A stretch of DNA of 64,000 nucleotides from a bacterium (GTDB taxonomy: Bacteria; Zhuqueibacterota; Zhuqueibacteria; Residuimicrobiales; Krinioviventaceae): the NCBI GenBank assembly GCA_963674595.2, contig CAXXFV010000026.1, positions 103,623-167,622 on the forward strand. Reading direction: 5' to 3'. Below the pieces are notes generated by a model. The model was not told the origin of the DNA. It did no database searches and worked only from the letters and a program-made list of their open reading frames with translations. The translations under genes and the position numbers were made by a program. Positions 13,020-48,922 of the stretch are shown in pieces; position 1 is the first letter of the stretch; the number at the start of each line of letters is the position of its first letter.

Positions 13020-13178
13020 GATATTACCGTACTCTTTGCTACCCGTTTTAATATCCTGATTGAAAATCCGCAGGACTGCCAGAACCTTGTATGCTCGACC
13101 AAATAATTTTTAAAAACAGTCCTTTACGGCTGATAATGAATTATACAAATTCTGTGATATTGGCGCAAGGGGTTTTTG
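13020..13178 (-). promoter_or_regulatory. Dispersed promoter-leader element, copy 2
   Basis: TTGCGC (13168-13163), 17 bp, TATAAT (13145-13140), then 'TTATCAGCCGTAAAGGACTGTTTTT..ATTTGGTCG..AAAACGGG..AGTAC'. Confidence 0.8.
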
Positions 13179-13519
13179 ATATAAATATTTAAATCCCCGA
13201 GGAGTTGTTTTTTGTTTGCAGTTGCTAGTGCAGCATCATTAAAATGGCTGGTCTACTGATTATCATTAAAAGAGTTCGATATTAAAAAACCAGACTACAC
13301 GTTTCAAATATCGCAAGTGCCGTTTGAATTAACAGGCCCTATTATTTGAAATAACAAACCTGCTTTTGGTATTTATTCTTTTTCGGACTCGACATCTTTT
13401 ATTTGTTAGAGGCATTTTCTACCCGACTGAAAGCCCAGTTGCAGGATGGACCATTTTGGCCCATCATTTAATTGATATAAAAATCTGTGGTGTTTGTCTG
13501 TACACATCTTTTCGTGTTA

Positions 13520-15132: not shown

Positions 15133-16455
15133 TTATTTTTGGTAAATTAATTTTTTTACCTCTGAAAAGTCATTAGTTTGAATTTTATATATATAAACAC
15201 CACTCGCCAAATTCTTAGGTTGCCATGTTGCTTGATGCTCACCAGTTGTCTGTCGGCAATCGACCAATGTCTCAACAAATTGGCCGGCTATATTATAAAT
15301 TGATAGATTAACATACGTTGGTTTTTTGATATTATATTTGATAGTTGTGGATGGATTAAATGGGTTAGGGTAGTTATTAAAAAGTTGAAATGTCTGGGAA
15401 TAACAACCATCGTTTTGAATAAATGTCGTTGTGGGAAGCATTGGACCACCAAAAGCACCTATGTCATTCCTTGTACCGTCTTGGTCATTATATTCGGGTG
15501 CCGGATCACCTGCATCAATACACGGGGAACTCTCTTGCAGATGATAATCGCCATGTTCAAAAGGGTATGGTGTTACATCGTTAGTAAATAACGGATCTTT
15601 AGATATATCATTCTCACCTGTATCAGTGTTTTCGTAATTGTTTACATTACCATAATCGTCACTATTATCAAATACATTATTATATGATATGTCAAGGATT
15701 GATCCATTTACGCTTTCTATTCCACAACCATAAACACCTGGCCATGCTGCCCCCCATTTAAAATCATTATTTGATATAATATTATTTTTTATGGTGCAAG
15801 ATGAACTGTCTACTAATAATCCCCAACCTGAACCATAGATGGCTCCATTTTCCCCATCATTGTGACTAATAGTATTGTTGATTATTGAAACGTTTTCCGA
15901 AGAAAGTATTTTTACACCACAACCACCACCGCCATCTAAATAAGCACAATTATGGATAATTAAATTATTTTTAAGTATCACATTATTTGATTCCGAAATG
16001 GATACTCCAAAGCCGGTAGGATGTTCATAATCACTACCAAAATTATCACGAATGAAACAGTTCTCAATTGTTACATTCTCAGAATTATATGTATTTATGC
16101 CTACATTATAACGTTCAATTATAAAACCATGAATAACAACTGAATTTGCACTCATTATATGAATACCAACTCCACCTACTGTTTGACTATTTATCCATTC
16201 CTGGGAAATTAAAACGGTATAGTCAGAACTTATCGATACGATACTTATTGATTTGTCAATTTCCAGATTTTCTGAATATTCGCCCCCGGCAACTTCGATA
16301 ATATCCCCTTGTTCTGACGCATCAATGGCAAGTTGAATTCTTGAATAATCTTGTGGTACTTTAATAACATTTCCTGTTACAGTAGCAGTCTTGAACATTA
16401 TTATTAATGCTAAAACTAAAGTTAATTTGTAGTGTGATAAAAAATTTCTTTCCAA
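15133..16455 (-). CDS. Right-handed parallel beta-helix (NosD/pectin-lyase-like) protein with T9SS-type CTD
   Basis: 'VPQDYSRIQLAID..GDIIEVAGGEYSENL', repeated 'I.NN.I..N', 'DYHLQESSPCIDAGDP..DIGAFGG', CTD 'NNYPNPFNPSTTIKY'; TTG start with AGGAGG RBS. Confidence 0.88.
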   Translation of the reverse strand: MERNFLSHYKLTLVLALIIMFKTATVTGNVIKVPQDYSRIQLAIDASEQGDIIEVAGGEYSENLEIDKSISIVSISSDYTVLISQEWINSQTVGGVGIHIMSANSVVIHGFIIERYNVGINTYNSENVTIENCFIRDNFGSDYEHPTGFGVSISESNNVILKNNLIIHNCAYLDGGGGCGVKILSSENVSIINNTISHNDGENGAIYGSGWGLLVDSSSCTIKNNIISNNDFKWGAAWPGVYGCGIESVNGSILDISYNNVFDNSDDYGNVNNYENTDTGENDISKDPLFTNDVTPYPFEHGDYHLQESSPCIDAGDPAPEYNDQDGTRNDIGAFGGPMLPTTTFIQNDGCYSQTFQLFNNYPNPFNPSTTIKYNIKKPTYVNLSIYNIAGQFVETLVDCRQTTGEHQATWQPKNLASGVYIYKIQTNDFSEVKKLIYQK

Positions 16456-18948: not shown

Positions 18949-19146
18949 TACCTGGCCTTTCTGTTTAACATAAATCGAAATATTAACTCTTGATACATGC
19001 TGCAAAATGAATATTAATGGCTAAACTCTATCGTAAGGGTGGGGAGACAAGTGCCCGCATTCTGATAATTATGTTTTGGAATTCCACCTCTAATGCGGTT
19101 TATGGCGGATCGATAAATCGATCCACTATAAACTTTTATCAACCAA

Positions 19147-20979
19147 TTATTTTAACAACAAACACTTGTGCGTTTTTTGATATTTATCCGCATAAAATTT
19201 GATAAAATATGTGCCGGTTGGATTATTTTTAGCATTCCAGATAATTCGGTGGTCACCGCCCGACATTTCCTGTTCTATGAGCTTTTCTACTAATCTTCCA
19301 TTTATGTCATATATTGAAATATCAACAAATGATTTTTTTGCCAGCGTAAATGGAATTGTTGTCGTGGGATTAAACGGATTTGGATAATTTTGTTGTAGCT
19401 GAAAAGCCTCAGGGACTGAATTATTTTCGCTGGATGAAACAGACGCCGGAGTTTCGACAATGACGATAAAATCTTTCGAATCAACGGTGTGTTTGCCGGT
19501 AATGTCTGTAAAAGCATATGTTACGCTGATATTTGAATAATGGCCAGGTGGTGTGTTTTCGGCGATGGCAATTTTGAGCACCCAACCAAAACTGTCCATT
19601 TCATAAACATTGGGACCGCCAATAAGAATAGGTTGAATAAATTCATCACCGCCGGTAACTGTGCTTCGGTCTGCTAACACCACGGAATTTGTGTTTGCGT
19701 TAGTACCATGAACTGTAACCGTATCACCCGGTGTTAAATAAACTTCTGTTCCACTGCCCGGAAGTTTGTAGAAAAAGGTAGTAGAATTAAACTCACTCCA
19801 GGTGTTGTCGCTGTTCATTGCATGGGCGTATATTGTGTGTTTTGTATTGTTTTTTAGATTTGGAATTATTAACGGATTGTAAAATTCTTCACTCATACTG
19901 TTAAATTCACCATCCGTTGCAGGTAGAGGATAACCGGTTCCGTCTTCGCCAATGCTGTCAACAAAACATTCCACAGATTTTATTGTTTGGTTCGACTCGG
20001 CTTTGCCAACAATTTCAACAACATTTCCATTAGTCGGCGATTCATTTACATAAAGTTGAGAAATGGAAAAATCATTTGTTGAAACATAAATGGAATCTAC
20101 AACAACATAGTCTTTCCCATCAAAAGCAGCAATTTTATAACAGTAGGTACTGCTTTCAGAAGGAGTATCAAATGATGTAAAATCGCGAACAGATTCAAGC
20201 AGCACATTGTCTTTAAATACATGAAAGGCTTCAATACCACCATTTATTGGTTTAATTTTTATATAGTCAAATTTGGCCTTTCCATTTTTTAAAGCATCAT
20301 ACATAACCAGGCCAACTTTCCCGCTGGAATGCTCTGCCCAAAATGGAACAGCATCTTTAATGTCATGATAATTTTGATAGACACCGTTGATGGTTACGGT
20401 TACGGCAGGGAGGGCCGATGCTTTTAGCTCAATTACATTCCATTGCCCCAAATTTTCATTTAATTCACTACTTGCAATCCATCCGGTCACGTTTTCAAGA
20501 CCTTGAGAGGAAAAGTTGTTAATTCTATAATCTCCGTAGCCGTGAATAAATTTATGAGTCGATTGCCAATTCCCGTCATCTCTTAGTGTAGTTGGATCTC
20601 CATTAAAAAATATTCCGACATTATCTTTATCACCTTGAGTTTTTGTCATTTTTGTTTCTATTATAATGTTGCTATAGTTTTGGTCGAAATATATTGAAGC
20701 ATTTTTGTGTGATCCTGAAGTGACTTCCAGGAAGCCGTTATTTACCTTCCAATTACCGGAGCGAGTTTTCCATTTGCTGTCAAGTGTTTCAAAATCGTCA
20801 TATATGTACTTGTCAAAATAGCCATTTTCCAAACTTGTACCCCAATTTAGAGTAACTTTTCCGGTTTGTTTATCGACTTGAGCATCCAGACTGTAAATTT
20901 CCTGGCTAAAACTTTTTATAGTGGAAATTAAAATGAACAAAAGTAAATAGGTTACTGTTCGGTGTATCAACCTTGTCAT
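19147..20979 (-). CDS. Secreted protein with DUF1080/ConA-like domain and T9SS-type CTD
   Basis: Signal peptide after GGAGG RBS; 'DDFE..WKTRSGNWKV..WNVIEL..SSGKVGL..FDYIKI' beta-sandwich; CTD 'QNYPNPFNPTTTIPF'. Confidence 0.8.
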   Translation of the reverse strand: MTRLIHRTVTYLLLFILISTIKSFSQEIYSLDAQVDKQTGKVTLNWGTSLENGYFDKYIYDDFETLDSKWKTRSGNWKVNNGFLEVTSGSHKNASIYFDQNYSNIIIETKMTKTQGDKDNVGIFFNGDPTTLRDDGNWQSTHKFIHGYGDYRINNFSSQGLENVTGWIASSELNENLGQWNVIELKASALPAVTVTINGVYQNYHDIKDAVPFWAEHSSGKVGLVMYDALKNGKAKFDYIKIKPINGGIEAFHVFKDNVLLESVRDFTSFDTPSESSTYCYKIAAFDGKDYVVVDSIYVSTNDFSISQLYVNESPTNGNVVEIVGKAESNQTIKSVECFVDSIGEDGTGYPLPATDGEFNSMSEEFYNPLIIPNLKNNTKHTIYAHAMNSDNTWSEFNSTTFFYKLPGSGTEVYLTPGDTVTVHGTNANTNSVVLADRSTVTGGDEFIQPILIGGPNVYEMDSFGWVLKIAIAENTPPGHYSNISVTYAFTDITGKHTVDSKDFIVIVETPASVSSSENNSVPEAFQLQQNYPNPFNPTTTIPFTLAKKSFVDISIYDINGRLVEKLIEQEMSGGDHRIIWNAKNNPTGTYFIKFYADKYQKTHKCLLLK

Positions 20980-21254
20980 CGTGACCTCCATTTCTGAATC
21001 ATGTCATGTGATCTCTATCAGCATAAACCAACGAACTGTGCCGTATGTTGATTTATTACTTTGTATTGTGTTGTCAGGATAAACGTACTGTTTCGACTTT
21101 TTCCCGCTCAGATTGTTTATAATGTTGTAATTTTAGTACGTTTTTTGCCGGTTTTAATAAAATTTTGGTAATGTGGCACAATGTGCCTGAATAAACAGAG
21201 TTTTTCGGATATTTTTCATCAACAGTACTACATCTGAGTATTTGGATGTTGTCA

Positions 21255-26009: not shown

Positions 26010-26160
26010 CATACTTAAAAAATCCCGTAATTATGTAGTGAAAATCAGATAAAGAACATTCAGGAACTCCCGTGCGCGACCAAATTGTCCTGAAAAACAG
26101 TTCCTTATGGCTGATAGCGAATAATACAAATTCTGTGATTTTGGTGCAAGGGGTTTTTAA
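26010..26160 (-). promoter_or_regulatory. Dispersed promoter-leader element, copy 4
   Basis: TTGCAC (26149-26144), 17 bp, TATTAT (26126-26121), then 'TATCAGCCATAAGGAACTGTTTTTCAGGACAATTTGGTCGCGCACGGGAGTTCCTGA'. Confidence 0.85.
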
Positions 26161-26194
26161 AATATTTTTGAGCTTTTTATTCTCGCCCCACACG

Positions 26195-26222
26195 GTAGAG
26201 ACGCGATTAATCGCCTCTCTAC
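26195..26222. repeat. GTAG-family REP-like palindrome
   Basis: GTAGAGACGCGATTAATCGCCTCTCTAC beside the MFS stop codon. Confidence 0.75.
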
Positions 26223-27698: not shown

Positions 27699-28196
27699 TT
27701 ATAACCGGGCGTTTGAAAATAAAAGATTGGCCAATATGCCTGCCAGGGGCGGGAAAATGAGTGTGGACACCAGTCGTATGACGGTGAACTTCCAGCCCAG
27801 AATGCCCAGTTCCATGGGAATGCGGCCGACAGCCCACAGGGACCAGCCGGTCATAAATGCCACCATGGTGCCGATGCCCGCACCGGCGTTTAAAAGTCCG
27901 GCAACAATCGGCAGACTAACATAGGGCCCGCCCGGTGTAAATGCCCCGGCTATTGCGCCGATAAAAATGCCGCGCATGCCCGATTCCGCACCAACCCATT
28001 GGGACAATGACTCTTTTGGAATGAGCACCTGCACCATTCCGGCGATGATAAAGGCAAAAATCAACATCGGCAAAATTTGCCAGGTCATGGTAAAAGCGGA
28101 CTGTAGGCCGGTGATGTGTTCCTGGTGTCCGCGCTGATAACCGATGATTAGTAAAACAACGGCAATAACGCCCATAATTATACTGGGAACGAGCAT
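27699..28196 (-). CDS. Permease (ArsP/DUF318-like short form)
   Basis: 'QWVGAESGMRG..GAFTPGGPYVSLPIVAGL'; AGGAGA RBS. Confidence 0.8.
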   Translation of the reverse strand: MLVPSIIMGVIAVVLLIIGYQRGHQEHITGLQSAFTMTWQILPMLIFAFIIAGMVQVLIPKESLSQWVGAESGMRGIFIGAIAGAFTPGGPYVSLPIVAGLLNAGAGIGTMVAFMTGWSLWAVGRIPMELGILGWKFTVIRLVSTLIFPPLAGILANLLFSNARL

Positions 28197-28598
28197 GGAT
28201 GATTTTCTCCTGTTTGGCACGTGTGGTCTTCTCCTTATATCGTATTAACGGTGAAATGTACAAAGAGATTTTGTGGATTTAAAGAAGTATTTTGAGAAAT
28301 AAACAGGTGTGTGGTGAGTTGAGGATTTGTGGGGCTGAAAGGGGGATGGCTATATTGCGGCTGGATGTAACATGCAGTCAGGTGAAATGTAACAAATGTT
28401 AGAAAAAAATTACAGGATAAGGACCATTACCGGCTGATAAAAAATATCGAGATTTTTACGGGCTATTTGAGGGTTTGACAGATGGGGACTGACTGGGGAT
28501 AAATATTTATAGGAGTCATTTGTACCACTTGAAAACAGCAAAATCGATTTACTGTTGACATGGAAAAAAGACCTGAATTTGTTAGGACCGCAGAAAAC

Positions 28599-28760
28599 CT
28601 AGTCAATGTCCACGTCATTGGGGTGTAAATGAACCACCTTGCCGTTTTCGGATATGACTATACGTTGGTTTCTGTCTTTTTTTGACTTTATCAACTTGTG
28701 GTAGGTCAATTCGAGTCCTTTAATGATTTTTTCTTTAATGTCGTTATTTTTTTTCTTCAT
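28599..28760 (-). CDS. 53-aa basic partner protein of the zeta-like ATPase
   Basis: Below the ORF-track cutoff; hand translation MKKKNNDIKEKIIKGLELTYHKLIKSKKDRNQRIVISENGKVVHLHPNDVDID; its start overlaps the end of the ATPase gene. Confidence 0.75.
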   Translation of the reverse strand: MKKKNNDIKEKIIKGLELTYHKLIKSKKDRNQRIVISENGKVVHLHPNDVDID

Positions 28761-29331
28761 TTAAAGCAACCATTTTTATAGAGTCAAATATATCCTGTTT
28801 TTTAATACTGATAATTTTATTTGTATATCCTTCTGCAATTAATTCAGAAGGCAGTTTTGAATTATCAAAAATCATCCAAAAATCACAAACCGGCATATAT
28901 AAACGAAAAAGATTTTTCAATCCTTTGAAATACCTTCTTATAATAATCGGTTCCGCAATATTATGTCCGCCTTCACGTACCCTGGTTTTAACCCGTTCAA
29001 TTGCCAGTTTCGTTGAATCGAGCCAGAAAAAAACCAAAGTAATATGATAGTTTGCCAGTTTTGCTTTCTGAATCATTTTAACATAAGTTTTTGACGCCAA
29101 GGTCGTTTCAAAAGCAAAATCCTGTCCTGTTGAGATCAGTTTCTCTATTTTTGTCAGCATGAGCCTGCCGGATTCAATCAATGGTTTTTCAGGATTCAGC
29201 GGCGATAAACCTCTGGCAATTTCATCTGCATTGACAAACTCGTGACAATCCAACATTTCCGGTAATACGGTAAAAGAAGCCGTTGTTTTGCCTGCTCCAT
29301 TACTTCCGGCGATAATATACAGGTTCGGCAT
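28744..29331 (-). CDS. Zeta-toxin family / AAA P-loop protein
   Basis: Walker A 'AGSNGAGKTT', 'FVNADEIARGL', 'FAFETTLA', 'RVREGGHNI'. Confidence 0.9.
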   Translation of the reverse strand: MPNLYIIAGSNGAGKTTASFTVLPEMLDCHEFVNADEIARGLSPLNPEKPLIESGRLMLTKIEKLISTGQDFAFETTLASKTYVKMIQKAKLANYHITLVFFWLDSTKLAIERVKTRVREGGHNIAEPIIIRRYFKGLKNLFRLYMPVCDFWMIFDNSKLPSELIAEGYTNKIISIKKQDIFDSIKMVALNEEKK

Positions 29332-30968: not shown

Positions 30969-32213
30969 TTATTTAACCAAAATCATTTTTCCGGTTAATG
31001 TTTTTGTGTCGGTTTTTAATGCGTAAAAATATATCCCTGATGGTTGATTGACTGCATTCCAAATTGTTCTGTGTGTGCCGGGTTCCTGTTGTTTGTCAAT
31101 AATTGTTTCGATAAGCTGCCCGTTGATGTTATATATATCAATTGTCACGTGTTGTTGTTTTTCCAAGTTATATTCGATAACCGTTTGAGCATTGAACGGG
31201 TTTGGAAAGTTTTTGATGTTTGTTAATTTATAATCATTTGTAACAACTACCGGACCATACTCGGTTGTTGTACCATCATAGTCGATCTGGTTCAGTTTGT
31301 ATTCTATAGTCCCCGGGTTAATTTCATCTTTATAGGTATAATTATTTGTCTGTGTATCTGTTCCATTGCCTTTTATAAAAGCAATTTGTTGATTGTTTCG
31401 TAAAATATCAAATCCATAATTATTAGATTCTGTTCTGGTTTGCCATTCCAGCAAAATACAGTTATTTTCTTTTTTAGCTGTAAATGATGTGAGCTCAACA
31501 GGAACGACTTTACCTGTCAAATCAATGGAATAATGAGTATAGTATTTTACCGAATCATAAAGTACAGGCATTTCAATATAAGATGAAAAACTTGCCGTTT
31601 CATTTGGTGCTATCGTGTTGTTTGTCACGTCGGCGTAGGTATAGTCAATACAAATTATTTTATTGTTCCTGTAAAAAGCACAAAATATGGTTGGATATAA
31701 AATATTTGTCCCGGATTGGTTTTTTATAGTGCCGATCCATTCGAAAAGAGTATAGAATTCATGGAATGATGATTGTTCAAGTGTAAGTGCATTTGTATTT
31801 AATTCAACAATATCATCTTTATCGTATTCGGAATAATTCACTTTAAAGTCAACACTATCAAAATCAACTTTTTCCATAACGCTCTCTGCAAAAGCGAATG
31901 AATTTGGTATCATCCCTGTATCTTCACATGTGTTATAATCAATATAAGCGGTTTTAGACGCTATAAGCACATCATTTTTATAAAATAAAATGATAACATG
32001 GACGTAAAAATAATAATGAAAAGCATTGTTGTTTGTTAGTTTGTAGGTTACTGTCCAAAGGTTATCGCTATAAGTGCTTAGTATCAAATCATTGATGGTA
32101 AAAGTACTGTTAACCTGCACGTCATGAAATTCATGTTCAATTTCAATGTGTCCAGAACTCGCTGGATTTGTAAAGAGAAATAATACGATTGTAATAGCAT
32201 AATACTTTTTCAT
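30969..32213 (-). CDS. Secreted protein with two FxLYD-like Ig domains and T9SS-type CTD
   Basis: Signal peptide, internal duplication ('ILFYKNDVLI' / 'AFYRNNKII'), 'VPVELTSFTA..WQT.TE.NNYGF', CTD 'KNFPNPFNAQTVIEY'. Confidence 0.8.
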   Translation of the reverse strand: MKKYYAITIVLFLFTNPASSGHIEIEHEFHDVQVNSTFTINDLILSTYSDNLWTVTYKLTNNNAFHYYFYVHVIILFYKNDVLIASKTAYIDYNTCEDTGMIPNSFAFAESVMEKVDFDSVDFKVNYSEYDKDDIVELNTNALTLEQSSFHEFYTLFEWIGTIKNQSGTNILYPTIFCAFYRNNKIICIDYTYADVTNNTIAPNETASFSSYIEMPVLYDSVKYYTHYSIDLTGKVVPVELTSFTAKKENNCILLEWQTRTESNNYGFDILRNNQQIAFIKGNGTDTQTNNYTYKDEINPGTIEYKLNQIDYDGTTTEYGPVVVTNDYKLTNIKNFPNPFNAQTVIEYNLEKQQHVTIDIYNINGQLIETIIDKQQEPGTHRTIWNAVNQPSGIYFYALKTDTKTLTGKMILVK

Positions 32214-32479
32214 GACCACCCTCATAATTTTGTATGTCTTTTATATCTAGCACGTTAAATTTTATTTATGGGAAAACATTCTGATCGTCCAGAGGTTCTT
32301 GCACATGGACTGATTAATAAAAGGTCTCTTGGCCCTCCTATGTTAAACATTAATTGTTTATGGTTATAAGGTGTAAAATTTTTCTGCTCTCAAGAATAGG
32401 AATTACTGGGCTATTATTAATGGCATGGCAATACCGCACCTTACTTTCATGGACATTCCACACTATACATTATTAACCG

Positions 32480-32680
32480 TGAGCCAAAAGGAATATGATC
32501 TTGTGACGGATACAATCTTTCCTCGTGCCTGTTTTTAAATCCCATATATGAATAAAAATTGAAAACCAGCAAAAGGACCATCAGGAACTCCCGTGCGCGA
32601 CCAAATCGTCCTGAAATAATCCTAAATAACTGATATCAAATAATACAAACTTTGTATGTTTGAGGCAAGCGGTTTTTAAA
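32480..32680 (-). promoter_or_regulatory. Dispersed promoter-leader element, copy 5
   Basis: TTGCCT (32668-32663), 17 bp, TATTAT (32645-32640), then 'TTTCAGGACGATTTGGTCGCGCACGGGAGTTCCTGATGGTCCTTTTGCTGGTTTTC..GGGATT..AAGATTGT..ATATTC'; similarity to copy 6 extends roughly 190 bp. Confidence 0.85.
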
Positions 32681-32744
32681 AAATTTCCACCTTTTTTCCC
32701 GGCTTGTTTGGGTGGAACGTTGTCGGAAGGATGTGTTTTTATAT

Positions 32745-32801: not shown

Positions 32802-32829
32802 GTAGAGACGCAAAATTTTGCGTCTCTAC
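32802..32829. repeat. GTAG-family REP-like palindrome (perfect)
   Basis: GTAGAGACGCAAAATTTTGCGTCTCTAC. Confidence 0.8.
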
Positions 32830-37227: not shown

Positions 37228-38490
37228 CTAGTCTTCCTTTGCCAGAACAATCGCCGGGTCCTGACGCGATGCGCTGAAAGCAGGCGGCCAGGTGCTGATC
37301 AATGTTACCAGAATAGCCGTTGCCCATGAACCGGCCAGCAATCCAAAGGTGATATATTTAAACTTGAAATAGGAAGCTGTTGTGCAAACCAGAATACCGG
37401 CAACCGTTCCGACGGCCGCACCGGTCATGCATATTAAAAACGCCTTTGCCAGAAACAGCAAAATAATCTGCGCCGGACGAACTCCCACCGCCATTAAAAT
37501 GCCGATTTCGTTTTTGCGTTCATTGGCGTTTTGTGTAAACAGGATATACAGCCACACCATGCATAACAGCAGCACAAAGGGTATAAAAAGCGCTGCGAAT
37601 TTTTTCTGAATTTCAAGCTGCTGCTGTTTATTTTTCCGGTCTGCAAACAGGGCGTCGGTTGCCTCTTTAGATGCACGTTGCCGTGCATGGGCGCGGGTGA
37701 TGACCTTTTCCTGTTTTTCGATGATTTGCACATCCGGCAAAATCGCATTGATTTCTTTTCGAAGACTGTCCAGCGAGTTGCCCGCACATAAACATTTCAG
37801 GGCCAAAATAGCATTGATACGTCCGGGCTGGTTCAGCAGTTTTTGCGCCTGCTGTAAATCGATCCACAGGGAAATATCGTCGCGGCTGCCGCGTTCCGGG
37901 TAGCATGTTTCGATGACAAATGATTGGCCCAGCACCTTGATCGTGTCGCCGGCCTTGAGATCAAGCATTGTATGGATATCATACCCGACAACAACCCGGC
38001 CTTTGGGCACGGCCTGCATCATGGGTTCTTTGGGCGCACGATACAGCAACGGTACTTCGCCGCGAATGCCCACCAGCAAAACATGGCGTTTGGCTTCCGG
38101 CCATAATATCTTTCTCTCCAGACTGGGCAGTAAATGGCGAATGGACATAGAGGAAGAGGCTGCCAGTTTTTCCACATACTCTTCGGGCATTGTTTTAGCA
38201 GCAAAATTATTTGTATAAAAATCCGTCAGATTTTGGTCCTGCGGAAGAATCAACAGATTGAATCCCAGTTCCTTCATAATCTTGCGATAATCGTCCTTGA
38301 GCACATCCGTCCTTTTTTGTGTATCCTGAATTTTATCTTCCAGCACAAGCCGGATGTGATTTTCGTGACTGGTCAATAGTAAAATAGACCCCAGGAAAAC
38401 AGCTACCGCAATGGTCACCGAGGCAACTCCCAGAATAAAGTTTCGTTTTCGTTGTTTGAGTTCTTTGATTAAAAGTGTGAACAGGGTCAT
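37228..38490 (-). CDS. ABC transporter permease (FtsX/MacB-like)
   Basis: One N-terminal TM, large periplasmic loop, 'NANERKNEIGILMAVG', three C-terminal TMs, 'PPAFSASRQDPAIVL'. Confidence 0.9.
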   Translation of the reverse strand: MTLFTLLIKELKQRKRNFILGVASVTIAVAVFLGSILLLTSHENHIRLVLEDKIQDTQKRTDVLKDDYRKIMKELGFNLLILPQDQNLTDFYTNNFAAKTMPEEYVEKLAASSSMSIRHLLPSLERKILWPEAKRHVLLVGIRGEVPLLYRAPKEPMMQAVPKGRVVVGYDIHTMLDLKAGDTIKVLGQSFVIETCYPERGSRDDISLWIDLQQAQKLLNQPGRINAILALKCLCAGNSLDSLRKEINAILPDVQIIEKQEKVITRAHARQRASKEATDALFADRKNKQQQLEIQKKFAALFIPFVLLLCMVWLYILFTQNANERKNEIGILMAVGVRPAQIILLFLAKAFLICMTGAAVGTVAGILVCTTASYFKFKYITFGLLAGSWATAILVTLISTWPPAFSASRQDPAIVLAKED

Positions 38491-39672: not shown

Positions 39673-39839
39673 GTTAATTTATATTAAAATATCAGAATTT
39701 ATTTTTAATATTCAGATTTTTAAGATAGTCTATTTCCGTATAAAAAACAAAAACTTTTGAATGGAAGGACGTTGATTTACAATAAATTACAATTTTATTT
39801 TCAGGAGGACGGGTGATAAATGTGCAGGGGAAATTGGGT

Positions 39840-39868
39840 AAAAAACGGGAGATGCCGGCATCTCCCGT
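39840..39868 (-). terminator. Terminator closing the symporter / small gene / repeat-array transcript
   Basis: Perfect 24-bp palindrome ACGGGAGATGCCGGCATCTCCCGT (39845-39868) followed by a T-run on the minus strand. Confidence 0.7.
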
Positions 39869-39877
39869 AATATTTTT

Positions 39878-40793
39878 TATTTGTTTCGTTTCGTAAAGCA
39901 GTAAACGCTGCCGATTAAAAGGGCAAATCCTGCAATTAAATCGAGAGTCAGGTCCCGACGGGACGGATCATGTTTTTTTTTGGTTCCATATATCAAAAAA
40001 TGCCGTTTATCATGAGGGTGAATTCTGCTATTAAACAAGAGTCAGGTCCCGACGGGACGGATCATAATCTTTTTTTTTCGTATCATATTTCAAAAAATAC
40101 CGCTTATCACAAGGGTGGATTCTACTAATAAAACGAGTATCAGGTCCCGTAGGGACTATTTATTTCGTTTTGTAAAGCAGAAAACGCCGCCTATCATAAG
40201 GGCAAATCCTGCAATTAAATCGAGAGTCAGGTCCCGACGGGACGGATCATATTCTATTTATTTTGTACTATATATCGAAAAATACCGTTTATCACAAGGG
40301 TGAAATCTGCTAATAAAACGAGTATCAGGTCCCGTAGGGACATTACTTGTTTCGTTTTGTAAAGCAGAAAACGCCGCCTATCATAAGGGCAAATCCTGCA
40401 ATTAAATCGAGAGTCAGGTCCCGACGGGACGGATCATGTTTTTTTTGGTTCCATATATCAAAAAACACCGTTTATCACAAGGGTGAATTCTGCTAATAAA
40501 ACGAGTATCAGGTCCCGTTGGGACTATTTGTTTCGTTTTGTAAAGCAGAAAACGCCGCCTATCATAAGGGCAAATCCTGCAATTAAATCGAGAGTCAGGT
40601 CCCGACGGGACGGATCATGTTTATTTTTGGTTCCATATATCAAAAAACACCGTTTATCACAAGGGTGAATTCTGCTAATAAAACGAGTATCAGGTCCCGG
40701 CGGGACTATTTGTTTCGTTTTGTAAAGCAGAAAACGCCGCCTATCATAAGGGCAAATCCTGCAATTAAATCGAGAGTCAGGTCCCGACGGGAC
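39878..40793. repeat. Higher-order tandem repeat array, 10 units of 87-98 bp, each ending in GTCCC-N3-GGGAC
   Basis: Palindromes start at 39952, 40046, 40144, 40231, 40329, 40418, 40512, 40599, 40694 and 40781. A units (87-89 bp) and B units (94-98 bp) mostly alternate and are homologous to each other. Confidence 0.95.
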
Positions 40794-40894
40794 AGCTCTG
40801 TAAACAAGGGGGTCAGCGCTGTAAAAAAGCCGATTCCCATAAAAAAGAAACTTGCCGGCAACCATATTTTAAGTTCGTATTTTGATTCTTCCAT
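40706..40894 (-). CDS. Small 2-TM membrane protein downstream of the symporter
   Basis: AAAGGA RBS, 62 aa with two hydrophobic helices and a basic tail, 30 bp after the symporter stop; its 3' half is repeat unit A. Confidence 0.7.
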   Translation of the reverse strand: MEESKYELKIWLPASFFFMGIGFFTALTPLFTELSRRDLTLDLIAGFALMIGGVFCFTKRNK

Positions 40895-40924: not shown

Positions 40925-42496
40925 TTAAAGAAGTATAGCTAAAAACGCATAAACCACAACAACGGCTGATACCAGAAAAACGCCCAGTATTTTGGGATTG
41001 TTGAGTCCTCTGCCGGTGATCTGCATATCTTCGTGTTCCACTTCCGGTTCGACAAAATTTTGTGCAAGACTAATGGCAACCGTAACAACCGTTGTTACCA
41101 GAAAAGAGACAAACGCGCGAAAATACAGAGTGTCTTTGGCAAAATCGGCCAGGTAACCTGCCATATCGGCTGTAAATAAAACAGAACCGACCACCAAGCC
41201 GATAATAACGCCCCACAATGCACCGCGCGGACTGCTGCGTCGCCACAGCGCGCCGAGAATCGTCACCGAACCAAAGGGCGGCATAATGGTCGCCAGAATA
41301 CCAACAGCCAAAAGGAACATGCCGTTTTTCGCAAAGGTAAAGATAAAAGCCGTGCCGATGGCCGCAACCGTAAAAATGATACCGGAAAGCCGCGACACCT
41401 TGATCAGTTTTTCCTGACTGGCGTTTTTATTGATCATGCGGCTGTAAATGTCTGTGGTAAACATGGTGCAGAACGCATTGATCTGTGAATCCGCACTGGA
41501 AAAGTTACCCGCCAGCAATCCGACAATGGTAATACCATAAAGTCCGTGGGGAAGATAATTTTTAATAAGCATGGGCATGGCAAAATCGTTGTTCGGCAGA
41601 CTGGGGAAATATTTAATCGCTGCCATGGCCGGTATATAAACGATAAAAGGCACGATCAGCGTGTGCCAGAAACCGGTGCCGATATAGGTTATGGCTGCTT
41701 CGCTGGTGTTGCGTGTGGAAAGCGGGCGCTGAATGATCTGCGCTTCACTGCTCCAGTAACTCATGGCTAAAAACAACATGCCGAAAATAGTAAAACCCAG
41801 CGGTCCGAAAGGAGTGTCCGGGTTCCAGATAGCGACTTTATCCGCCGGTAAACTATTGATCAGGTTAATGGGCCCGCCAACGTCCATCCACACAACGCCG
41901 GCCAAAAAGATAAAGGGAAAAAACATCAGCACAAGCTGAACAACATCCGTGGCAACAACCGCCCCGAATCCGCCTAGAATGGTATAGGTTGCGGCAACAA
42001 CCGTAAGAAATACGATTGAAAAATACAAGTCCCAGCCGACCAGCGTATGCATGACAATAGCGCCGGCGTAAATATAAAGACCCAGGTTAAAAAGCATCCA
42101 TATAAATGCCCAGATAATGCTGTAAAGGTTGCCGACCGGATCGCTGTAACGTTTTCGCAGCCATTCACCCAGCGTAAATACGTTCCTGCCCCGAAGTTTT
42201 CTCATCAGAATAAAGGCCAGAAAGAGAATAACCAGACTGTTAATTAATGAGGAGTGAATCATTACGATTCCCATGGCGTAAATAGCACCGGCGCCGCCGA
42301 TAAAGTCGTTGGCGTTCATATTCGTTGCTACGGTGGAAATACAGCCGATAAATCCCGGCACTTTGCGTCCGGCCAGAAAAGAGTCTGATAATTTTGCTTT
42401 CCCCTTGTCCTTAAGCATAACGCCCCAGATGGTAACACCGGCCATAAAAAATATGACCATGACCCATTCGTTTAGTAATAGTTTACCCGGCTCCAT
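40925..42496 (-). CDS. Sodium:solute symporter (SSS/SLC5) family protein
   Basis: 'SFLAGRK', 'YTILGGFGAVVATDVVQ', 'GLLAGNFSSADSQIN..FTTDIY'; AAGGAG RBS before ATG 42496. Confidence 0.93.
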   Translation of the reverse strand: MEPGKLLLNEWVMVIFFMAGVTIWGVMLKDKGKAKLSDSFLAGRKVPGFIGCISTVATNMNANDFIGGAGAIYAMGIVMIHSSLINSLVILFLAFILMRKLRGRNVFTLGEWLRKRYSDPVGNLYSIIWAFIWMLFNLGLYIYAGAIVMHTLVGWDLYFSIVFLTVVAATYTILGGFGAVVATDVVQLVLMFFPFIFLAGVVWMDVGGPINLINSLPADKVAIWNPDTPFGPLGFTIFGMLFLAMSYWSSEAQIIQRPLSTRNTSEAAITYIGTGFWHTLIVPFIVYIPAMAAIKYFPSLPNNDFAMPMLIKNYLPHGLYGITIVGLLAGNFSSADSQINAFCTMFTTDIYSRMINKNASQEKLIKVSRLSGIIFTVAAIGTAFIFTFAKNGMFLLAVGILATIMPPFGSVTILGALWRRSSPRGALWGVIIGLVVGSVLFTADMAGYLADFAKDTLYFRAFVSFLVTTVVTVAISLAQNFVEPEVEHEDMQITGRGLNNPKILGVFLVSAVVVVYAFLAILL

Positions 42497-42675: not shown

Positions 42676-42703
42676 GTAGAGACGCAAGATTTTGCGTCTC
42701 TAC
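42676..42703. repeat. GTAG-family REP-like palindrome
   Basis: GTAGAGACGCAAGATTTTGCGTCTCTAC, about 50 bp upstream of element copy 6. Confidence 0.8.
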
Positions 42704-42744
42704 CATGTGGGCCAGGGAGATGAAATAAAAGTCTAAAAAATTTA

Positions 42745-42945
42745 TAAAAACCTCTTGCGCTGTTATTGCAGAATTTGTATTATTCGTTATCAGCTATAAA
42801 GGACTGTTTTTCAGGAAAATTTGGTCGCGCACGGGAGTTCCTGATTGTTCTTTTTGCTGGTTTTCCAATTTATTATTAAAAACGGGATTCAAAAGTACAA
42901 ACGGGGAAAGATTGTGTCGGTTGTATGGTTATATTCTTGTTGCCC
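42745..42945 (+). promoter_or_regulatory. Dispersed promoter-leader element, copy 6 (plus strand, upstream of the restriction endonuclease)
   Basis: TTGCGC (42755-42760), 17 bp, TATTAT (42778-42783), then 'TATCAGCTATAAAGGACTGTTTTTCAGGAAAATTTGGTCGCGCACGGGAGTTCCTGA'. Confidence 0.85.
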
Positions 42946-43020: not shown

Positions 43021-43920
43021 ATGCCATCATTAGCTGAAGATTTGCAAACACAAAAATTTGAAATTGAAAGCTTTCGAATAGTTACTGAACGTGTATTAAA
43101 TTATATGCAGGAAATGATTGATGAAAAAATTGAATGCGGTGATTATTTTGTCTGTTCTTCGACAACTGCGGGAACGCGAAAGGCTATAAGGCCCTATAAA
43201 AAAAATCTGTTTATTAATAAATCCGATCAGTTTAACGATTTATATAATGAATTCATCAAAATTCTGAATAAAATTAAAAATGATAAACATGATTTTACCA
43301 AATCAGATTTTACAGTACTAGATAAGGTTATTTATACAACACAACAATCTATCGGAATTGGTCTTGATTTTTTAGTTGAACCTAATTCTGCCAGGAAACA
43401 TGTCGGAAACAGATTTGAGGAGTTAATTCGCACACTGTTATCAGAAATGAATATTCCCATTAAAAAGGTTGTTCTAAGTATACCGTATGAAACAGAGGAA
43501 GGTGAAAAATTTTATAAATGTGAAACTGATGTTATTATTTCTCCCTATGATTCTGTCCGTTCTGACCCAAAGAATATTGATCCGCATGAAATAGTGATTT
43601 CTCTAAAAACAACAACAAAAGATAGAATGCCCAAAATTTTTATTGATAAGATCCTGATGGAGAGATTCTTAGAACATCCGGTAAGGATGGTTGGTATCTC
43701 ACAGAATGACATTCAACGTAAAGAGGATAAAGGCGAAATTAAAATAAGCTATACTTTTGTATCAAATTTATTCATGGTCTATACAAAATTTCTAGCAGAA
43801 TTAGAAGGGTATTATTATTTAGATATTCCCAAAAGAGCTTTAGAATCACCATTTAATAGGCATATATTCCCATTCTCTAAATTCATTTTATCAGATATTT
43901 GGAACTTATTGCGTACGTAA
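43021..43920 (+). CDS. Putative Type II restriction endonuclease (PD-(D/E)XK fold)
   Basis: 'SARKHVGNRFEELI', 'ETDVII', 'VISLKTTTKDR' match a PD-(D/E)XK-like arrangement; convergent with and overlapping a DNA methyltransferase; AT-rich; AGGAG RBS. Confidence 0.75.
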   Translation: MPSLAEDLQTQKFEIESFRIVTERVLNYMQEMIDEKIECGDYFVCSSTTAGTRKAIRPYKKNLFINKSDQFNDLYNEFIKILNKIKNDKHDFTKSDFTVLDKVIYTTQQSIGIGLDFLVEPNSARKHVGNRFEELIRTLLSEMNIPIKKVVLSIPYETEEGEKFYKCETDVIISPYDSVRSDPKNIDPHEIVISLKTTTKDRMPKIFIDKILMERFLEHPVRMVGISQNDIQRKEDKGEIKISYTFVSNLFMVYTKFLAELEGYYYLDIPKRALESPFNRHIFPFSKFILSDIWNLLRT

Positions 43921-44973
43921 CTTTTTTCTGCGTGCAACAGCTTCATATTCATCTTTTGCTGATGCAATTCTGGAAATATTGTCTCTGTCAGATAACCGCT
44001 CTTTGATAATCTCGCAATAATCAAGATTAATTTCTGTTCCAAGCCAATTTCTATTGTATGCCTCTGATACTGCATAGGTCGTGCCTGATCCTCCGAATGG
44101 GTCTACAACAACACTCCCTTCGTAGGATGAAGCTAATACACATTTTCTAACCAATTCGATAGGTTTTTGTGTTTCATGTGGCGTCTTTTCCCACGCAGCG
44201 TTTGCTATTGTTGGGATTTCAAAAACGTCTTTTGGTTTTGCACCGTTAGGATGGGGTTCCCATATATATTTTTTACCATTTCCATTGTTATATTGCGAAG
44301 TTTCTGCCTGTGGTCTTTGGGGGTATTTAAGTGTATGTGCATTATAGGGGATTCTTACATCATCGATATTAAAAATAAACTTTTTACTTTTTCTGAAATG
44401 TAAAAGGCTTTCATGAGAACGCCCCCAATCATTTCCAAGATTTGCTTTATTACGGTAAAACCAGACCAACCACTTACAGCCCTTAAATAAATAGTTTGCT
44501 GCCCATTTGATGTCTGCTAATATTTCTGAAAAACCACAAATATATAAAGTTCCATGAGGTTTCAATACTCTATGGGCTTCCCTAATCCATTGCATGCACC
44601 ATTCTACATATTGTTTTTGAGATTGGAAAGAATCCCATTCCGCTTTTTTTATATTGTAAGGAGGATCTGCAAATATTAAATCTACAGAATCATCATCAAT
44701 AGATCTAAGAAATCTAAGTACATCAACATTATATAGTTTACCAAAATCAGTGCTAAAAATGGGTTGCCCTAATTTTACGTTTTTTCTTTCAGGTGTATAT
44801 TGGAGTTGTAATTCTTTTACAAAACTATTAACTTTATCAAGTGGATATACCCGATAATTATTAATAGGATTCCTCGATGATGGAAATTTCCCTGTTTTGT
44901 CCCAACGGCGAAGTGTTTCCTTGTTAACACCAATAATTTCTGCGGCATCGCTTATTGAGATAAATGAATTCAT
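43906..44973 (-). CDS. Site-specific N4/N6 DNA methyltransferase (beta class) with N-terminal MerR/Xis-like HTH
   Basis: HTH 'ISISDAAEIIGVNKETLRRWD..NNYRVY'; catalytic DPPY before 'HETQKP' and SAM-binding 'DPFGGSGTT'. Confidence 0.93.
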   Translation of the reverse strand: MNSFISISDAAEIIGVNKETLRRWDKTGKFPSSRNPINNYRVYPLDKVNSFVKELQLQYTPERKNVKLGQPIFSTDFGKLYNVDVLRFLRSIDDDSVDLIFADPPYNIKKAEWDSFQSQKQYVEWCMQWIREAHRVLKPHGTLYICGFSEILADIKWAANYLFKGCKWLVWFYRNKANLGNDWGRSHESLLHFRKSKKFIFNIDDVRIPYNAHTLKYPQRPQAETSQYNNGNGKKYIWEPHPNGAKPKDVFEIPTIANAAWEKTPHETQKPIELVRKCVLASSYEGSVVVDPFGGSGTTYAVSEAYNRNWLGTEINLDYCEIIKERLSDRDNISRIASAKDEYEAVARRKKLRTQ

Positions 44974-45059: not shown

Positions 45060-45268
45060 GAAATAATTTCAAGCTCAAGTATTACAAACGCATAAACGTA
45101 AACAATGTCTCACATCAAAGGGACTTAGCATTTTACGATCTATTTTTTTTATTCGTCCTGGGGTATGAATTCTTGTCTATTAAAAATATTTTTATATATT
45201 AAAATTTTAAATCGTTTATCGTTTAACAGTACGAATCCAACCTGAAACGCAGCGAGAAGGGATTATTT

Positions 45269-46684
45269 ATGAAAAATGCAATGATCGTGTTGATCAGTGC
45301 AGTTATGCTGGTTGCGGCATGCCGTGGTATAAAACCACAATCAATGTATCAACCTGATTTACTGATATCCACATCAGGCTCCTCTGCACATGCTGATAAT
45401 GTTATTCAGCCGCTCTATCAAACACTGTTACGATTTAAAAGAAATATCGGTCCCATTCCTGTTAACCAGACCGCTGATTTTTTTAAACAGTTCTCTCTTC
45501 AAAAAGGTGAGTCCGAACCCATGCTTTTTGCGGCAAATATGAACAATATAACGGGAGATAACAAGATGAACACGTTTTTCGACGAACACGACATCGTGAT
45601 TGGAGAAAAGTCTGAAACAGCCTTTATGAACAAATATGATATATATCAGGACGGCACAACACCGATGTATCGCGATGTGGACGGAAAACTTTGGGCAATG
45701 AGCGGACATTCGCATATGGGGCATATCGGTATGTTCTACGGTACACGTCTTGATGATTTAAAAGAGTTATACCCCATTTCCACAAATTTTTGCGTAGGAC
45801 ATGCCGATTATGCGTTTTCAGGTATACGTTATCCGGAAGGGATTAAACCTCGCGGCAGTATCTGGCCTTTTGGTTTATATATTAGTCCCAATACACACCG
45901 GTTTTTTTGCTTTTTTCATAATGAAACAGGCTGGAACGCAAAAGGAACCGGGTATATCGTTAAAGGCAAAGGCGACGGCGAACCGGATTTTCGTCATATT
46001 GGTCTTATGCATTCGGATGACGAAGGAAAAAACTGGACCTTCGACAGATGGGTGATTACGTCCGAAGAGGTTTGTTTCAGCGAATTGTATAATCCGGACG
46101 GGGAAAATGTTTTGGGACAAAAACAAGGACTGACGTGCCTTGGTGCCGGGGACTTTTCATTGTATGTTGAACCCGATGGGGAGTATATGTATCTTTTTTA
46201 CAACCTTTGCCGGGTCGAGTCTGAATCGTCAGTATGGAATAGTTGCGATACCTATGTGGCCCGGACCCGTAAACGTACGGACGGTGTGATGGGTGATTTT
46301 GTCAAGTATTTTAACGGCGAATTTTGCGAAGCCGGTAACCTCGGGAAAGAAACACCTATTGTATATAACGCCTGGCATCCGCGTGTCGTTTATTCTAAAA
46401 AATACGGACTGTATATAATGTCGTGTTCGCACATGACACCGGGTAAGAAAAAGCATGTTATCGACGACGTTATAGAAGTGCTGACCAGTGAGGACATGCT
46501 GCATTGGAGCGATCCCATACGAATCATGTACGAAGGTAAAGAGTTCGGTAACCACTATCAGGCTATTGTGCCGAACGATGATAAAAATCAGCCCAATATT
46601 TTGGAAGGTGATGAATTTTATATTTTGACCAACCACAACGGTACGGATGTTATGCGTTACGCTGCAAAGATCGTCAAAAAATAG
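45269..46684 (+). CDS. Chimeric lipoprotein: PrsA-derived N-terminus fused to a beta-propeller glycoside-hydrolase-like domain
   Basis: Residues ~1-95 align with the N-terminus of 47897..48922; internal GGGAG-N8-ATG at 45566; Asp-box 'SDDEGKNW', 'FFHNE', 'GAGDFS', 'TSEDMLHWSDP' suggest a GH43/32-like propeller. Confidence 0.75.
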   Translation: MKNAMIVLISAVMLVAACRGIKPQSMYQPDLLISTSGSSAHADNVIQPLYQTLLRFKRNIGPIPVNQTADFFKQFSLQKGESEPMLFAANMNNITGDNKMNTFFDEHDIVIGEKSETAFMNKYDIYQDGTTPMYRDVDGKLWAMSGHSHMGHIGMFYGTRLDDLKELYPISTNFCVGHADYAFSGIRYPEGIKPRGSIWPFGLYISPNTHRFFCFFHNETGWNAKGTGYIVKGKGDGEPDFRHIGLMHSDDEGKNWTFDRWVITSEEVCFSELYNPDGENVLGQKQGLTCLGAGDFSLYVEPDGEYMYLFYNLCRVESESSVWNSCDTYVARTRKRTDGVMGDFVKYFNGEFCEAGNLGKETPIVYNAWHPRVVYSKKYGLYIMSCSHMTPGKKKHVIDDVIEVLTSEDMLHWSDPIRIMYEGKEFGNHYQAIVPNDDKNQPNILEGDEFYILTNHNGTDVMRYAAKIVKK

Positions 46685-46765: not shown

Positions 46766-46793
46766 GTAGCGACGCAAGATTTTGCGTCGCTAC
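46766..46793. repeat. GTAG-family REP-like palindrome with compensatory changes
   Basis: GTAGCGACGCAAGATTTTGCGTCGCTAC: paired A>C / T>G substitutions relative to the 42676 copy keep the stem intact. Confidence 0.8.
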
Positions 46794-47764: not shown

Positions 47765-47896
47765 AGGCATATATAACTAATATCATAAAAAATATATTAG
47801 GTGTTTGTAAAATAAATTCATATATTACCCAGTTTTAAATCGTTTATCGTTCAACAGAGCGAATTAAACCTGAAATACAAAGAGAAAGGATCTCTT

Positions 47897-48922
47897 ATGA
47901 AAAATGCAATGATCGCGTTGATCAGTGCAGTCATGCTGATAGCGGCATGCAGTGATAAAAAACCACAGCCAAAGTATCAACCAGGAACACCGGAATATGC
48001 ATTTTTTGAAAAGGTCGCTGAAAAAGTTCCTGTACTCAATCCAAATGAAAATAATGTACTGGTCTCGACCTCAGAGTTTTCTGTGTATATCAGTGATGTC
48101 GCGCAGCCTCTGTATCAAACATTTAGACGATTTGAACAAAATATCGAAACCATTCCTGTAAACAATGTGACAGATTTTTTAAAACAATTTTCCACCCAAA
48201 AAGCAGAACGTGAATTGATGCTTCTTGCAGCAAATAAGAGCAACATAACCGTTCCTCAAGATTCTTTGACCAAACGTCTGGTAGAAATTTATACCCGTTT
48301 TGGCGGTGAGGATAAATTTGTTGAATATTTGGCAAAACAAGGTTTGGACCTCGAATTTGTTAAAAAAGATGTTAAAGAATCATCTATTATTCAAAAATAT
48401 CTTCAAGATGTTGTTTTTAATGTTGACGACAATATCTCTGATGAAGAATTAAAAGAAGCCTATGATAAAGACAAAACCGCATCGGTTCGCCATATCCTTT
48501 TCAAGACCCAGGGCAAATCAGACACTGAAAAAGAAGAAATTCGTCAAAAAGCTGAAAAAGTTTTAGCAGAAGCAAAAGATGGGAAAGACTTTGCCGGATT
48601 GGCTAAAGAGTATTCTGAAGATCCCGGCTCAAAAGACAATGGCGGTCTTTATGAAGATTTTGAAAGAGGAAGAATGGTTAAACCTTTTAACGATGCTTCT
48701 TTTTCTTTGCCGATTGGCGCTATCAGTGATTTGGTTGAAACTCAGTTTGGTTTTCACATTATAAAAATTATTGATCGTAAAAAAGAAACAAGACCTTTTG
48801 ACGAAGTTAAGGACGAATTGAAAAACAGTGTATCTGCTTTGAAAAAATCTGATGCCTATACCAACGCTGTGGAGTCGTTAAAAGAAGAGTATAAATATAC
48901 TGAACATTTTGAAAATCTCTAG
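47897..48922 (+). CDS. PpiC-type peptidyl-prolyl isomerase lipoprotein (PrsA/SurA-like)
   Basis: Lipobox IAAC; 'VRHILF', 'DFAGLAKEYSEDPGSKDNGG', 'MVKPFNDASFSL..ISDLVETQFGFHII'. Confidence 0.93.
   Translation: MKNAMIALISAVMLIAACSDKKPQPKYQPGTPEYAFFEKVAEKVPVLNPNENNVLVSTSEFSVYISDVAQPLYQTFRRFEQNIETIPVNNVTDFLKQFSTQKAERELMLLAANKSNITVPQDSLTKRLVEIYTRFGGEDKFVEYLAKQGLDLEFVKKDVKESSIIQKYLQDVVFNVDDNISDEELKEAYDKDKTASVRHILFKTQGKSDTEKEEIRQKAEKVLAEAKDGKDFAGLAKEYSEDPGSKDNGGLYEDFERGRMVKPFNDASFSLPIGAISDLVETQFGFHIIKIIDRKKETRPFDEVKDELKNSVSALKKSDAYTNAVESLKEEYKYTEHFENL

Follow-up and report, generated by a model that had tools for sequence, protein, structure and literature searches.

The window analysed here, a stretch of 64,000 nucleotides (64 kb) from contig CAXXFV010000026.1 (Zhuqueibacterota), contains on its minus strand a gene for a sodium:solute symporter (SSS; 40925..42496), a gene for a protein of 62 amino acids (aa) with two predicted membrane helices (40706..40894) and, behind this gene pair, an array of ten head-to-tail units (39877-40793) that starts within the small gene and repeats its 3' end. 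Every unit opens with the palindrome GTCCC-N3-GGGAC, which is 13 nt long and has a 5-bp stem and a 3-nt loop, and the array is closed by an intrinsic terminator on the same strand (39845-39868; 39839..39868 in the feature list). The motif (GTCCCNNNGGGAC) occurs 11 times in the window, with 0.04 copies expected, and 11 copies were reached in none of 100 shuffled sequences. Ten of these copies are found at 39952-40793; the eleventh (1599-1611) is located inside an unrelated phosphatase open reading frame (ORF), in the part encoding its sorting domain. An array of ten units punctuated by hairpins and made from the end of a small membrane gene was what the original prediction, a reading of the letters without database searches, had described for this place, and its layout could be reproduced.

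When the array is cut at the palindromes, the units (U1 to U10, counted from the gene outward) measure 87, 95, 87, 94, 89, 98, 87, 98, 94 and ~88 nt. Two types alternate in the order A-B-A-B-A-B-A-B-hybrid-A', which is also the predicted one; the A units have 87-89 nt and the B units 94-98 nt, and their alternation forms a dimer of 182 nt. Tandem Repeats Finder reported a period of 182 (4.3 copies, 92% matches) and, as a second solution, a period of 87 (5.7 copies, 71% matches).

Unit 1 (type A, 87 nt; 40707..40793) is part of the gene. It consists of codons 35-62 of the 62-aa ORF (its last 28 codons) together with the TA of the stop codon, and it opens with GTCCCGTCGGGAC, where TCC CGT CGG GAC encodes SRRD; the next palindrome begins on the G of the TAG stop. 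All these details had been read correctly before. The further A units are unit 3 (87 nt; 40525..40611), which is identical (100%) to unit 1; unit 5 (89 nt; 40342..40430), unchanged except for a silent change in Lys62, the conversion of TAG to TAA and two additional nucleotides after the stop; unit 7 (87 nt; 40157..40243), with a single change, silent, in Asn61; and the A' unit 10 (39877..39964), which is 92% identical to unit 1 and has an intact frame ending in TAA. The latter carries the residue changes M50L, G53S and F55Y and three silent changes. Among the B units, unit 2 (95 nt; 40612..40706) follows in frame after the TAG stop and has TGA at codon 22 and the loop GCC, and unit 4 (94 nt; 40431..40524; loop AAC) is 96% identical to it. 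Unit 6 (98 nt; 40244..40341) has an open frame of 28 codons with TAG at the type-A stop codon, followed by a tail of 10 nt, and unit 8 (98 nt; 40059..40156) is 88% identical to unit 6. Unit 9 (94 nt; 39965..40058), which has a 1-nt deletion, is an A/B mosaic according to its diagnostic columns.

Two statements of the original prediction have to be narrowed. The in-frame TGA ascribed to the B type is present in U2, U4 and U8, whereas U6 has CGA at this place and has kept TAG at the stop codon of A. The divergence that was said to rise with distance from the gene does so only roughly, the differences from U1 being 0 in U3, 3 in U5, 1 in U7 and 7 in U10. The loops do vary as described (on the plus strand GAC in six cases, GTA in two, GTT and GGC in one each), with stems that are intact in 10/10 palindromes.

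The terminator (a hairpin with 10 bp in the stem, 6 of them G-C pairs, and 4 nt in the loop, together with a T run) was likewise placed correctly. It follows unit 10, is the only strong one downstream of the stop codon and also appears as a hairpin in the fold prediction. As the array lies between the stop codon and this sole strong terminator, it is probably transcribed, as part of a 3' untranslated region (UTR) of ~860 nt, and the 3' UTR position that had been proposed for it is therefore likely.

Such an array could in principle be a product of assembly, being absent from the genome or wrong in copy number. The source looks like a draft assembly, and the protein is known from two contigs; furthermore, units 1+2 and 3+4 are 96-100% alike, and one dimer could have been gained or lost. 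However, private changes are present in nearly all units, all pairs of units differ except U1/U3, and the private substitutions of the B units need real reads. The longest exact repeat within the array has 95 nt, which is below usual read lengths and top k-mer lengths, and ordinary reads can therefore bridge every junction. An artefact thus appears very unlikely, the number of near-identical dimers being the weakest point of the layout.

The symporter and its small neighbour

The symporter gene, the first of the pair, was assigned by matches to PF00474 (Pfam, E = 1.3e-53) and TIGR00813 (NCBIfam, 225 bits with a cut-off of 184). Its ORF as listed opens at TTG (42595); similarity to the orthologue from a related locus (L002, see below; 65% identity over 522 aa) starts at Met34, that is, at 42496. 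The stop codon of the symporter gene and the start of the 62-aa gene are separated by 30 nt.

For the small protein, no family was found in NCBIfam at E <= 0.01, and the Pfam scan gave DUF4131 only (E = 0.18; 11.9 bits with a cut-off of 31.6). DUF6903 was obtained as an Atlas lead with a score of 0.88, below the bar of 0.9. A word-based protein search yielded a single relative (P0001, 98% identity), and an exhaustive HMMER search 12 relatives (cluster representatives) at E <= 0.001. These 12 proteins are 62-84 aa long, and both helices are covered in all of them. Nine columns of the family alignment are invariant (including P13, G22, T28, P29, L34, D42, G46 and G53); D42, G46 and G53 lie within the helix encoded by unit A, and the SRRD loop residues are variable across the family. 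The full-length homologues with both helices rule out that the 62-aa ORF merely reads into a pre-existing repeat. Together with the invariant residues of the unit-A helix, they support the predicted direction, i.e. that the array was made from the 3' end of the gene and not the reverse. Judged by its relatives, the 62-aa gene is a real gene, older than the array and the source of the repeat. Use of TAG as a sense codon is also unlikely, as 9/43 long ORFs end in TAG.

Note that the 62-aa gene contains, directly 5' of the first palindrome, an imperfect direct repeat of 21 nt (40789-40829), with 16/21 bases alike. Its copies encode FFTALTP and LFTELSR, and the second copy extends into the first palindrome. 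This repeat either points once more to local slippage or is an ancient repeat within the protein.

A scan of genome contigs provided three related loci (L001-L003) for comparison, whose small proteins are 53-55% identical to the one studied here. In all three, the small gene is located directly after the symporter gene or its remnant. In L002, the symporter orthologue is followed after 11 nt by the gene for a 72-aa homologue, the end of which is overlapped by an unrelated ORF of 335 aa, and L001 has the same layout as far as the locus extends. In L003, only the last 120 symporter codons are left (1,205 bp are missing in comparison with L002), and the small gene is intact; since this is a draft genome, the loss of the symporter (L003, 9206-9997) may be a real deletion or an assembly error. 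The palindrome has no copies in L001-L003, no unit copy is present in them, and none has a tandem repeat at the site. Because the three loci are mutually close, the gene pairing is seen in two lineages and the array in one. Among the genomes compared, and on the evidence of their sequences, the array is specific to this lineage.

Decay of B units and conservation of A units

The A units (U1, U3, U5, U7 and U10) are 91-100% alike, U1 and U3 being identical, and the B units (U2, U4, U6 and U8) 85-96%. B is homologous to A along its whole length, with an identity of 58-67% between A and B units, i.e., a difference of about 33%. The 25 sites at which U6 differs from A are distributed as 7, 9 and 9 over codon positions 1, 2 and 3. 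At the differing sites, B has A or T in 21/25 cases in U6 and in 17/23 cases in U2, and two of the family-invariant residues are lost in B (D42 -> V and G46 -> E). By this substitution pattern, B is an old copy of A that has decayed neutrally and with an AT bias.

The A units have varied far less: 2/87 columns vary among U1, U3, U5 and U7 versus 17/87 among U2, U4, U6 and U8 (Fisher p = 0.0004). The contrast is also seen within dimers, with p < 0.011 in 4/6 dimer pairs; for example, in the comparison of U3U4 with U7U8 the A parts vary at 1/87 and the B parts at 14/98 positions (p = 0.0008). As A remained near-identical while B drifted in the same dimers, duplication of whole dimers followed by neutral drift cannot explain the difference. 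In U9, the A state is found at 5/5 diagnostic columns up to column 29; beyond this point, 23 diagnostic columns have the B state and two the A state. This A/B mosaic is direct evidence that gene conversion occurs, and short-tract conversion with the selected coding copy is in our opinion the simplest account of the likeness of the A copies.

Those changes that are present in U5 and U7 are all (3/3) silent or stop-to-stop (p = 0.015). For all A copies together, 6/10 changes are silent (p = 0.018), or 5/9 if TAG>TAA is counted once (p = 0.045), and the numbers are small. With their open frame and correctly placed stop codon, and with three of three changes silent in U5 and U7, the downstream A copies might be regarded as a reservoir for recombination, made up of silent cassettes that would provide a back-up of the C-terminal helix or an alternative to it. 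Unit 10 would then bring three residue changes, and silent C-terminal cassettes are described behind fhaB and mafB in the available excerpt of PMC1797815. However, no diversity is stored in U3, which does not differ from the coding copy, nor in U5 and U7, in which the encoded peptide is unchanged; in unit 10, the family-invariant G53 is lost; and a putative small inner-membrane partner of a transporter has no evident reason to vary. A function of the array as a reservoir is therefore highly improbable.

The coding capacity of the A units also recalls repeated type I toxin-antitoxin loci, of which Ibs/Sib and Ldr/Rdl are examples, and the array could accordingly be read as a series of tandem modules, each comprising a small hydrophobic peptide and an antisense RNA. 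Each A unit codes for a single membrane helix that carries a basic tail; sigma-70-like pairs of hexamers are present in every B tail, directed into the next A unit, and similar pairs on the opposite strand in four A units; furthermore, weak terminator-like sites (a hairpin followed by a T-rich stretch) are found on the plus strand at four A/B junctions. However, all promoter matches reach just 9/12 of a sigma-70-like consensus that is perhaps not the host's type, and these matches recur because the units recur. The repeats do not each have a small hydrophobic ORF with a start codon of its own. An ORF with a start codon reaches only 3/4 of the downstream A-type copies (there is none for U7), and the three ORFs differ from each other (113 aa, starting inside the gene in another frame; 41 aa, with GTG; 53 aa, with TTG). 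None of the eight array ORFs was found as a known protein in the protein collection. We regard toxin-antitoxin modules as extremely unlikely here.

Hairpins and the origin of the array

According to the original prediction, the hairpins are under selection. None of the 10 stem columns varies among the four B units, compared with 19/85 other columns (Fisher p = 0.09), and variation in the first 32 columns of these units is limited to two of the three loop positions (p = 0.006). This evidence for selection on the stems is only suggestive. Compensatory evidence is lacking because the stem bases never change in any unit.

A single hairpin has an energy of -5.8 kcal/mol as RNA and of -2.9 kcal/mol as DNA. 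Two adjacent palindromes can, in addition, anneal to one another over 12 bp with a single mismatch (-14.4 kcal/mol for the duplex in single-stranded DNA), and pairing between palindromes was found in 6/6 folded segments that contain two of them; this pairing offers a route to bring unit ends together in single-stranded DNA. The array RNA has a fold z-score of -8.8 relative to 20 shuffles, and single units have z-scores of -2.1 to -4.5. These low values are due to the pairing of neighbouring palindromes with each other. The alignment fold of five B-type units had a covariation term of +0.32, and 1/35 predicted pairs, located outside the palindromes, was changed on both sides; a conserved RNA structure inside the units is thus unsupported by this alignment. 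A known RNA family is ruled out as far as the Rfam scans extend, which gave no match in the array region at E <= 1 nor in the whole window at gathering scores.

An obvious question is whether the hairpins constitute a device in the 3' UTR that is maintained by selection, of the kind known from repetitive extragenic palindromes (REPs) and bacterial interspersed mosaic elements (BIMEs). It could act in message stabilisation, attenuation of read-through or protein binding; the palindromes or the 12-bp duplexes between them would be its active part, and selection, not conversion alone, would keep the units. The ten intact stems would fit such a role, as would the invariance of the stem columns, the variable loop positions within the invariant 32-nt block and the fact that the array folds far better than its shuffles. 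Furthermore, the array has existed long enough for the B units to acquire 12-15 differences in 98 positions, and an E. coli REP array is reported to be both a terminator and a stabiliser (10.64898/2026.03.23.713779, available in part). However, conservation of structure and conservation of sequence are not separable with invariant stems that give no compensatory change; the conserved block extends well past the stem; any array of self-complementary 13-mers would give low fold energies; the single hairpin reaches only -5.8 kcal/mol; and the region has no Rfam match. Moreover, L001-L003 have the gene pair and manage without an array. A selected device of this kind is possible but appears doubtful to us.

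In the origin that we consider rather probable, the segment of a real small membrane-protein gene that encodes the last helix was amplified in tandem, specifically in this lineage, by slippage and recombination, with conversion between the copies. The start point of the repeated segment is the 13-bp palindrome in the loop-coding part of the gene; as the repeated segment starts exactly at the palindrome, amplification at this site, as originally proposed, is a fair inference. The palindrome and the following 4-8 identical bases provide direct repeats of 17-21 nt at distances of 87-98 nt. These direct repeats, together with the mutual pairing of palindromes in single-stranded DNA, would favour replication slippage and unequal recombination, by which units may be gained or lost. 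Short-tract conversion from the selected coding copy would keep the A units alike, and the same process would have produced the mosaic unit 9. If the array has any effect, it would probably be that of a structured RNA of the REP/BIME type that slows 3'-to-5' decay of the message for the symporter and the small protein. Such a barrier to decay is a plausible but hypothetical function of this long 3' UTR. Nevertheless, we regard the array mainly as a tolerated by-product of an unstable sequence and not as a built device.

Several points weigh against this amplification by slippage and conversion without a selected function. The B units are old, as they differ from each other by 12-15/98 positions, and the array has thus been long-lived though its direct repeats favour deletion, which hints at selection for the array. 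Unchanged stems next to two variable loop positions in an otherwise invariant 32-nt block (p = 0.006) are the pattern expected of a functional hairpin. One-way conversion does not fully account for the silent changes of those A copies that are non-coding, and the A copies themselves may be under selection. The proposed effect on the message has its difficulties as well: a REP-like block of exonucleases is uncertain because single RNA hairpins are weak (-5.8 kcal/mol), and Rho, as we assume, could end transcription early in the untranslated stretch of 837 nt. Alternatively, the locus might represent a 3' UTR element of BIME-like character that is just arising from coding sequence. A palindrome that originated in the loop codons for SRRD would have seeded copies of the last helix of the gene, and the non-coding A copies and the ten stems would now be kept by selection as RNA or DNA modules. 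Candidate roles would be those of decay barriers or of decoys that draw off a factor binding to this hairpin in the coding region. We consider this unlikely.

If the amplification from the small gene is true, the locus would be a readable, dated case of an intragenic palindrome that seeded a long non-coding repeat array, with gene conversion tying the silent copies to the selected coding copy. A bacterial 3' UTR would have grown by ~840 nt without a mobile element, which bears on the origin of REP/BIME/NIME-type arrays (NIME, neisserial intergenic mosaic element). At present, it is an anatomical curiosity of one lineage.

Other repeats of the window and comparison with known systems

The original prediction had further called the palindrome REP-like and proposed a search for a cognate REP-associated tyrosine transposase (RAYT). 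In the sense of a dispersed family with a RAYT, this likeness is not supported. No copy of a unit is present elsewhere in the 64-kb window, where the palindrome has no dispersed extragenic copies of the REP or REPIN-RAYT kind, its single extra copy being located inside an ORF. Among the 43/49 ORFs of at least 150 aa that were scanned against Pfam, there was no family of Y1 transposases, reverse transcriptases, integrases or Cas proteins (of the six other long ORFs, five are overlapped by longer ones, and the sixth, 37228-38490, was compared with NCBIfam alone). REP palindromes are imperfect and about 20-40 nt long, and the palindrome found here has 13 nt with a stem of 5 bp.

Other known elements do not match either. 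The array gave no blastn match in plasmid and phage collections, and a mobile element was rejected on this basis. It is not a CRISPR array, as the 'spacers' belong to two repeated families and no Cas family was found in the ORFs scanned. In diversity-generating retroelements, template and variable repeats differ at template adenines, and a reverse transcriptase is encoded nearby; here the differences show no specificity for adenine (B has A at only 10/23 differing sites in U2 and at 11/25 in U6), and no reverse transcriptase was found in the ORFs scanned. The NIME palindrome dRS3 has the sequence ATTCCC-N8-GGGAAT in the excerpt of PMC1797815, and the one here is GTCCC-N3-GGGAC. The literature matches listed include no comparable bacterial case, which does not show that none is in print.

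The window contains, in addition, a second dispersed palindrome, GTAGAGACGCAA-N4-TTGCGTCTCTAC, which has a 12-bp stem and is unrelated to that of the array. At up to 3 mismatches, four copies were found (26195-26222, 32802-32829, 42676-42703 and 46766-46793), with 0 expected; all are intergenic, and one precedes the symporter start by ~180 nt. Of the two palindromes, this one has the greater resemblance to a REP-type family. A dispersed intergenic repeat of ~125 nt is present in five copies (9766-9892, 13064-13190, 26045-26175 and 32566-32692 on the plus strand, 42737-42867 on the minus strand). Its invariant cores include ACCAAAT, CTGATA and GCAAG, and in two or three copies it adjoins the 28-nt palindrome GTAGAGACGCAA-N4-TTGCGTCTCTAC. 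It has no match in Rfam, and its consensus fold (-5.4 kcal/mol) is not convincing. Furthermore, two stretches of 181 nt (45174-45354 and 47802-47982) are 80% alike, each spanning the upstream region and the start of a plus-strand gene.

Beside the symporter operon, there is a convergent, overlapping gene pair (43021-43920 on the plus strand, 43906-44973 on the minus strand), the products of which are an N6/N4 DNA methylase fused to a MerR-type helix-turn-helix (E = 1.7e-51) and a 299-aa protein without a significant family match; this is possibly a restriction-modification pair. Six ORFs (1492-3159, 10046-12001, 15133-16455, 16816-19005, 19147-20991 and 30969-32225) end with the C-terminal sorting domain of type IX secretion (Por_Secre_tail), in agreement with the labels KSB1 and 'Cytophagia' that the related loci carry. 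On the minus strand, a 195-aa ORF (28744-29331) contains a Zeta-toxin-type kinase domain (E = 2e-11), and a 173-aa ORF (27699-28220) aligns with just positions 11-138 of the ArsP_1 permease model (294 positions) and may be truncated or split.

Several SSS transporters have small membrane partners, which belong to the DUF4212, DUF485, DUF997 and DUF3311 families. The 62-aa protein resembles these partners as a two-helix protein of 60-80 aa encoded beside a symporter gene, and its pairing with the symporter is conserved in two lineages. It differs from the named families in matching no Pfam or NCBIfam model and in the position of its gene downstream of the symporter gene; its partnership with the symporter is putative.

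As to the array, BIMEs consist of short G+C-rich palindromes in tandem, with other short motifs between them, and REPs are present in hundreds of dispersed extragenic copies and tied to the RAYT transposase. The array shares with them the tandem arrangement of G+C-rich palindromes between a gene and the transcript end. In contrast to BIMEs and REPs, it is confined to a single locus, with no other unit copy in 64 kb and no RAYT in the window ORFs scanned; its stem has 5 bp, whereas that of REPs is longer and imperfect; its first copy lies inside a coding sequence; and its spacers are themselves copies of coding sequence. The REP array in an E. coli 3' UTR (REP325, yjdM-yjdN) is reported, in the available part of 10.64898/2026.03.23.713779, as terminator/attenuator and transcript stabiliser.

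In NIMEs, dRS3 (20 bp) flanks RS units of about 50-150 bp next to genes, the number of units varies between strains, and the arrays are proposed to be substrates for recombination (PMC1797815, excerpt). As far as this excerpt describes them, NIMEs and the array have in common that short inverted repeats with a CCC...GGG core punctuate gene-adjacent arrays of units. The palindrome here has a different sequence and length, and NIMEs are found at many loci with more than 100 RS families according to the same excerpt, whereas the array has two gene-derived unit types at one locus in an unrelated phylum. The silent cassettes that lie 3' of fhaB and mafB and encode alternative C termini (PMC1797815) are similar to the A copies in that non-expressed copies of a 3' end lie directly downstream and have short repeats in common with the expressed copy. 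Here, the peptide encoded by the copies is the same or a broken version, and no alternatives are supplied.

Slipped-strand tandem duplication takes place between short direct repeats, is stimulated by hairpins and gives products that are usually short-lived. The array agrees with this process in its direct repeats of 17-21 nt, which contain the palindrome and are 87-98 nt apart, and gain or loss of units as well as mosaics are what would be expected of it. It differs from the usual products in being old, with unit types that are about 33% apart.

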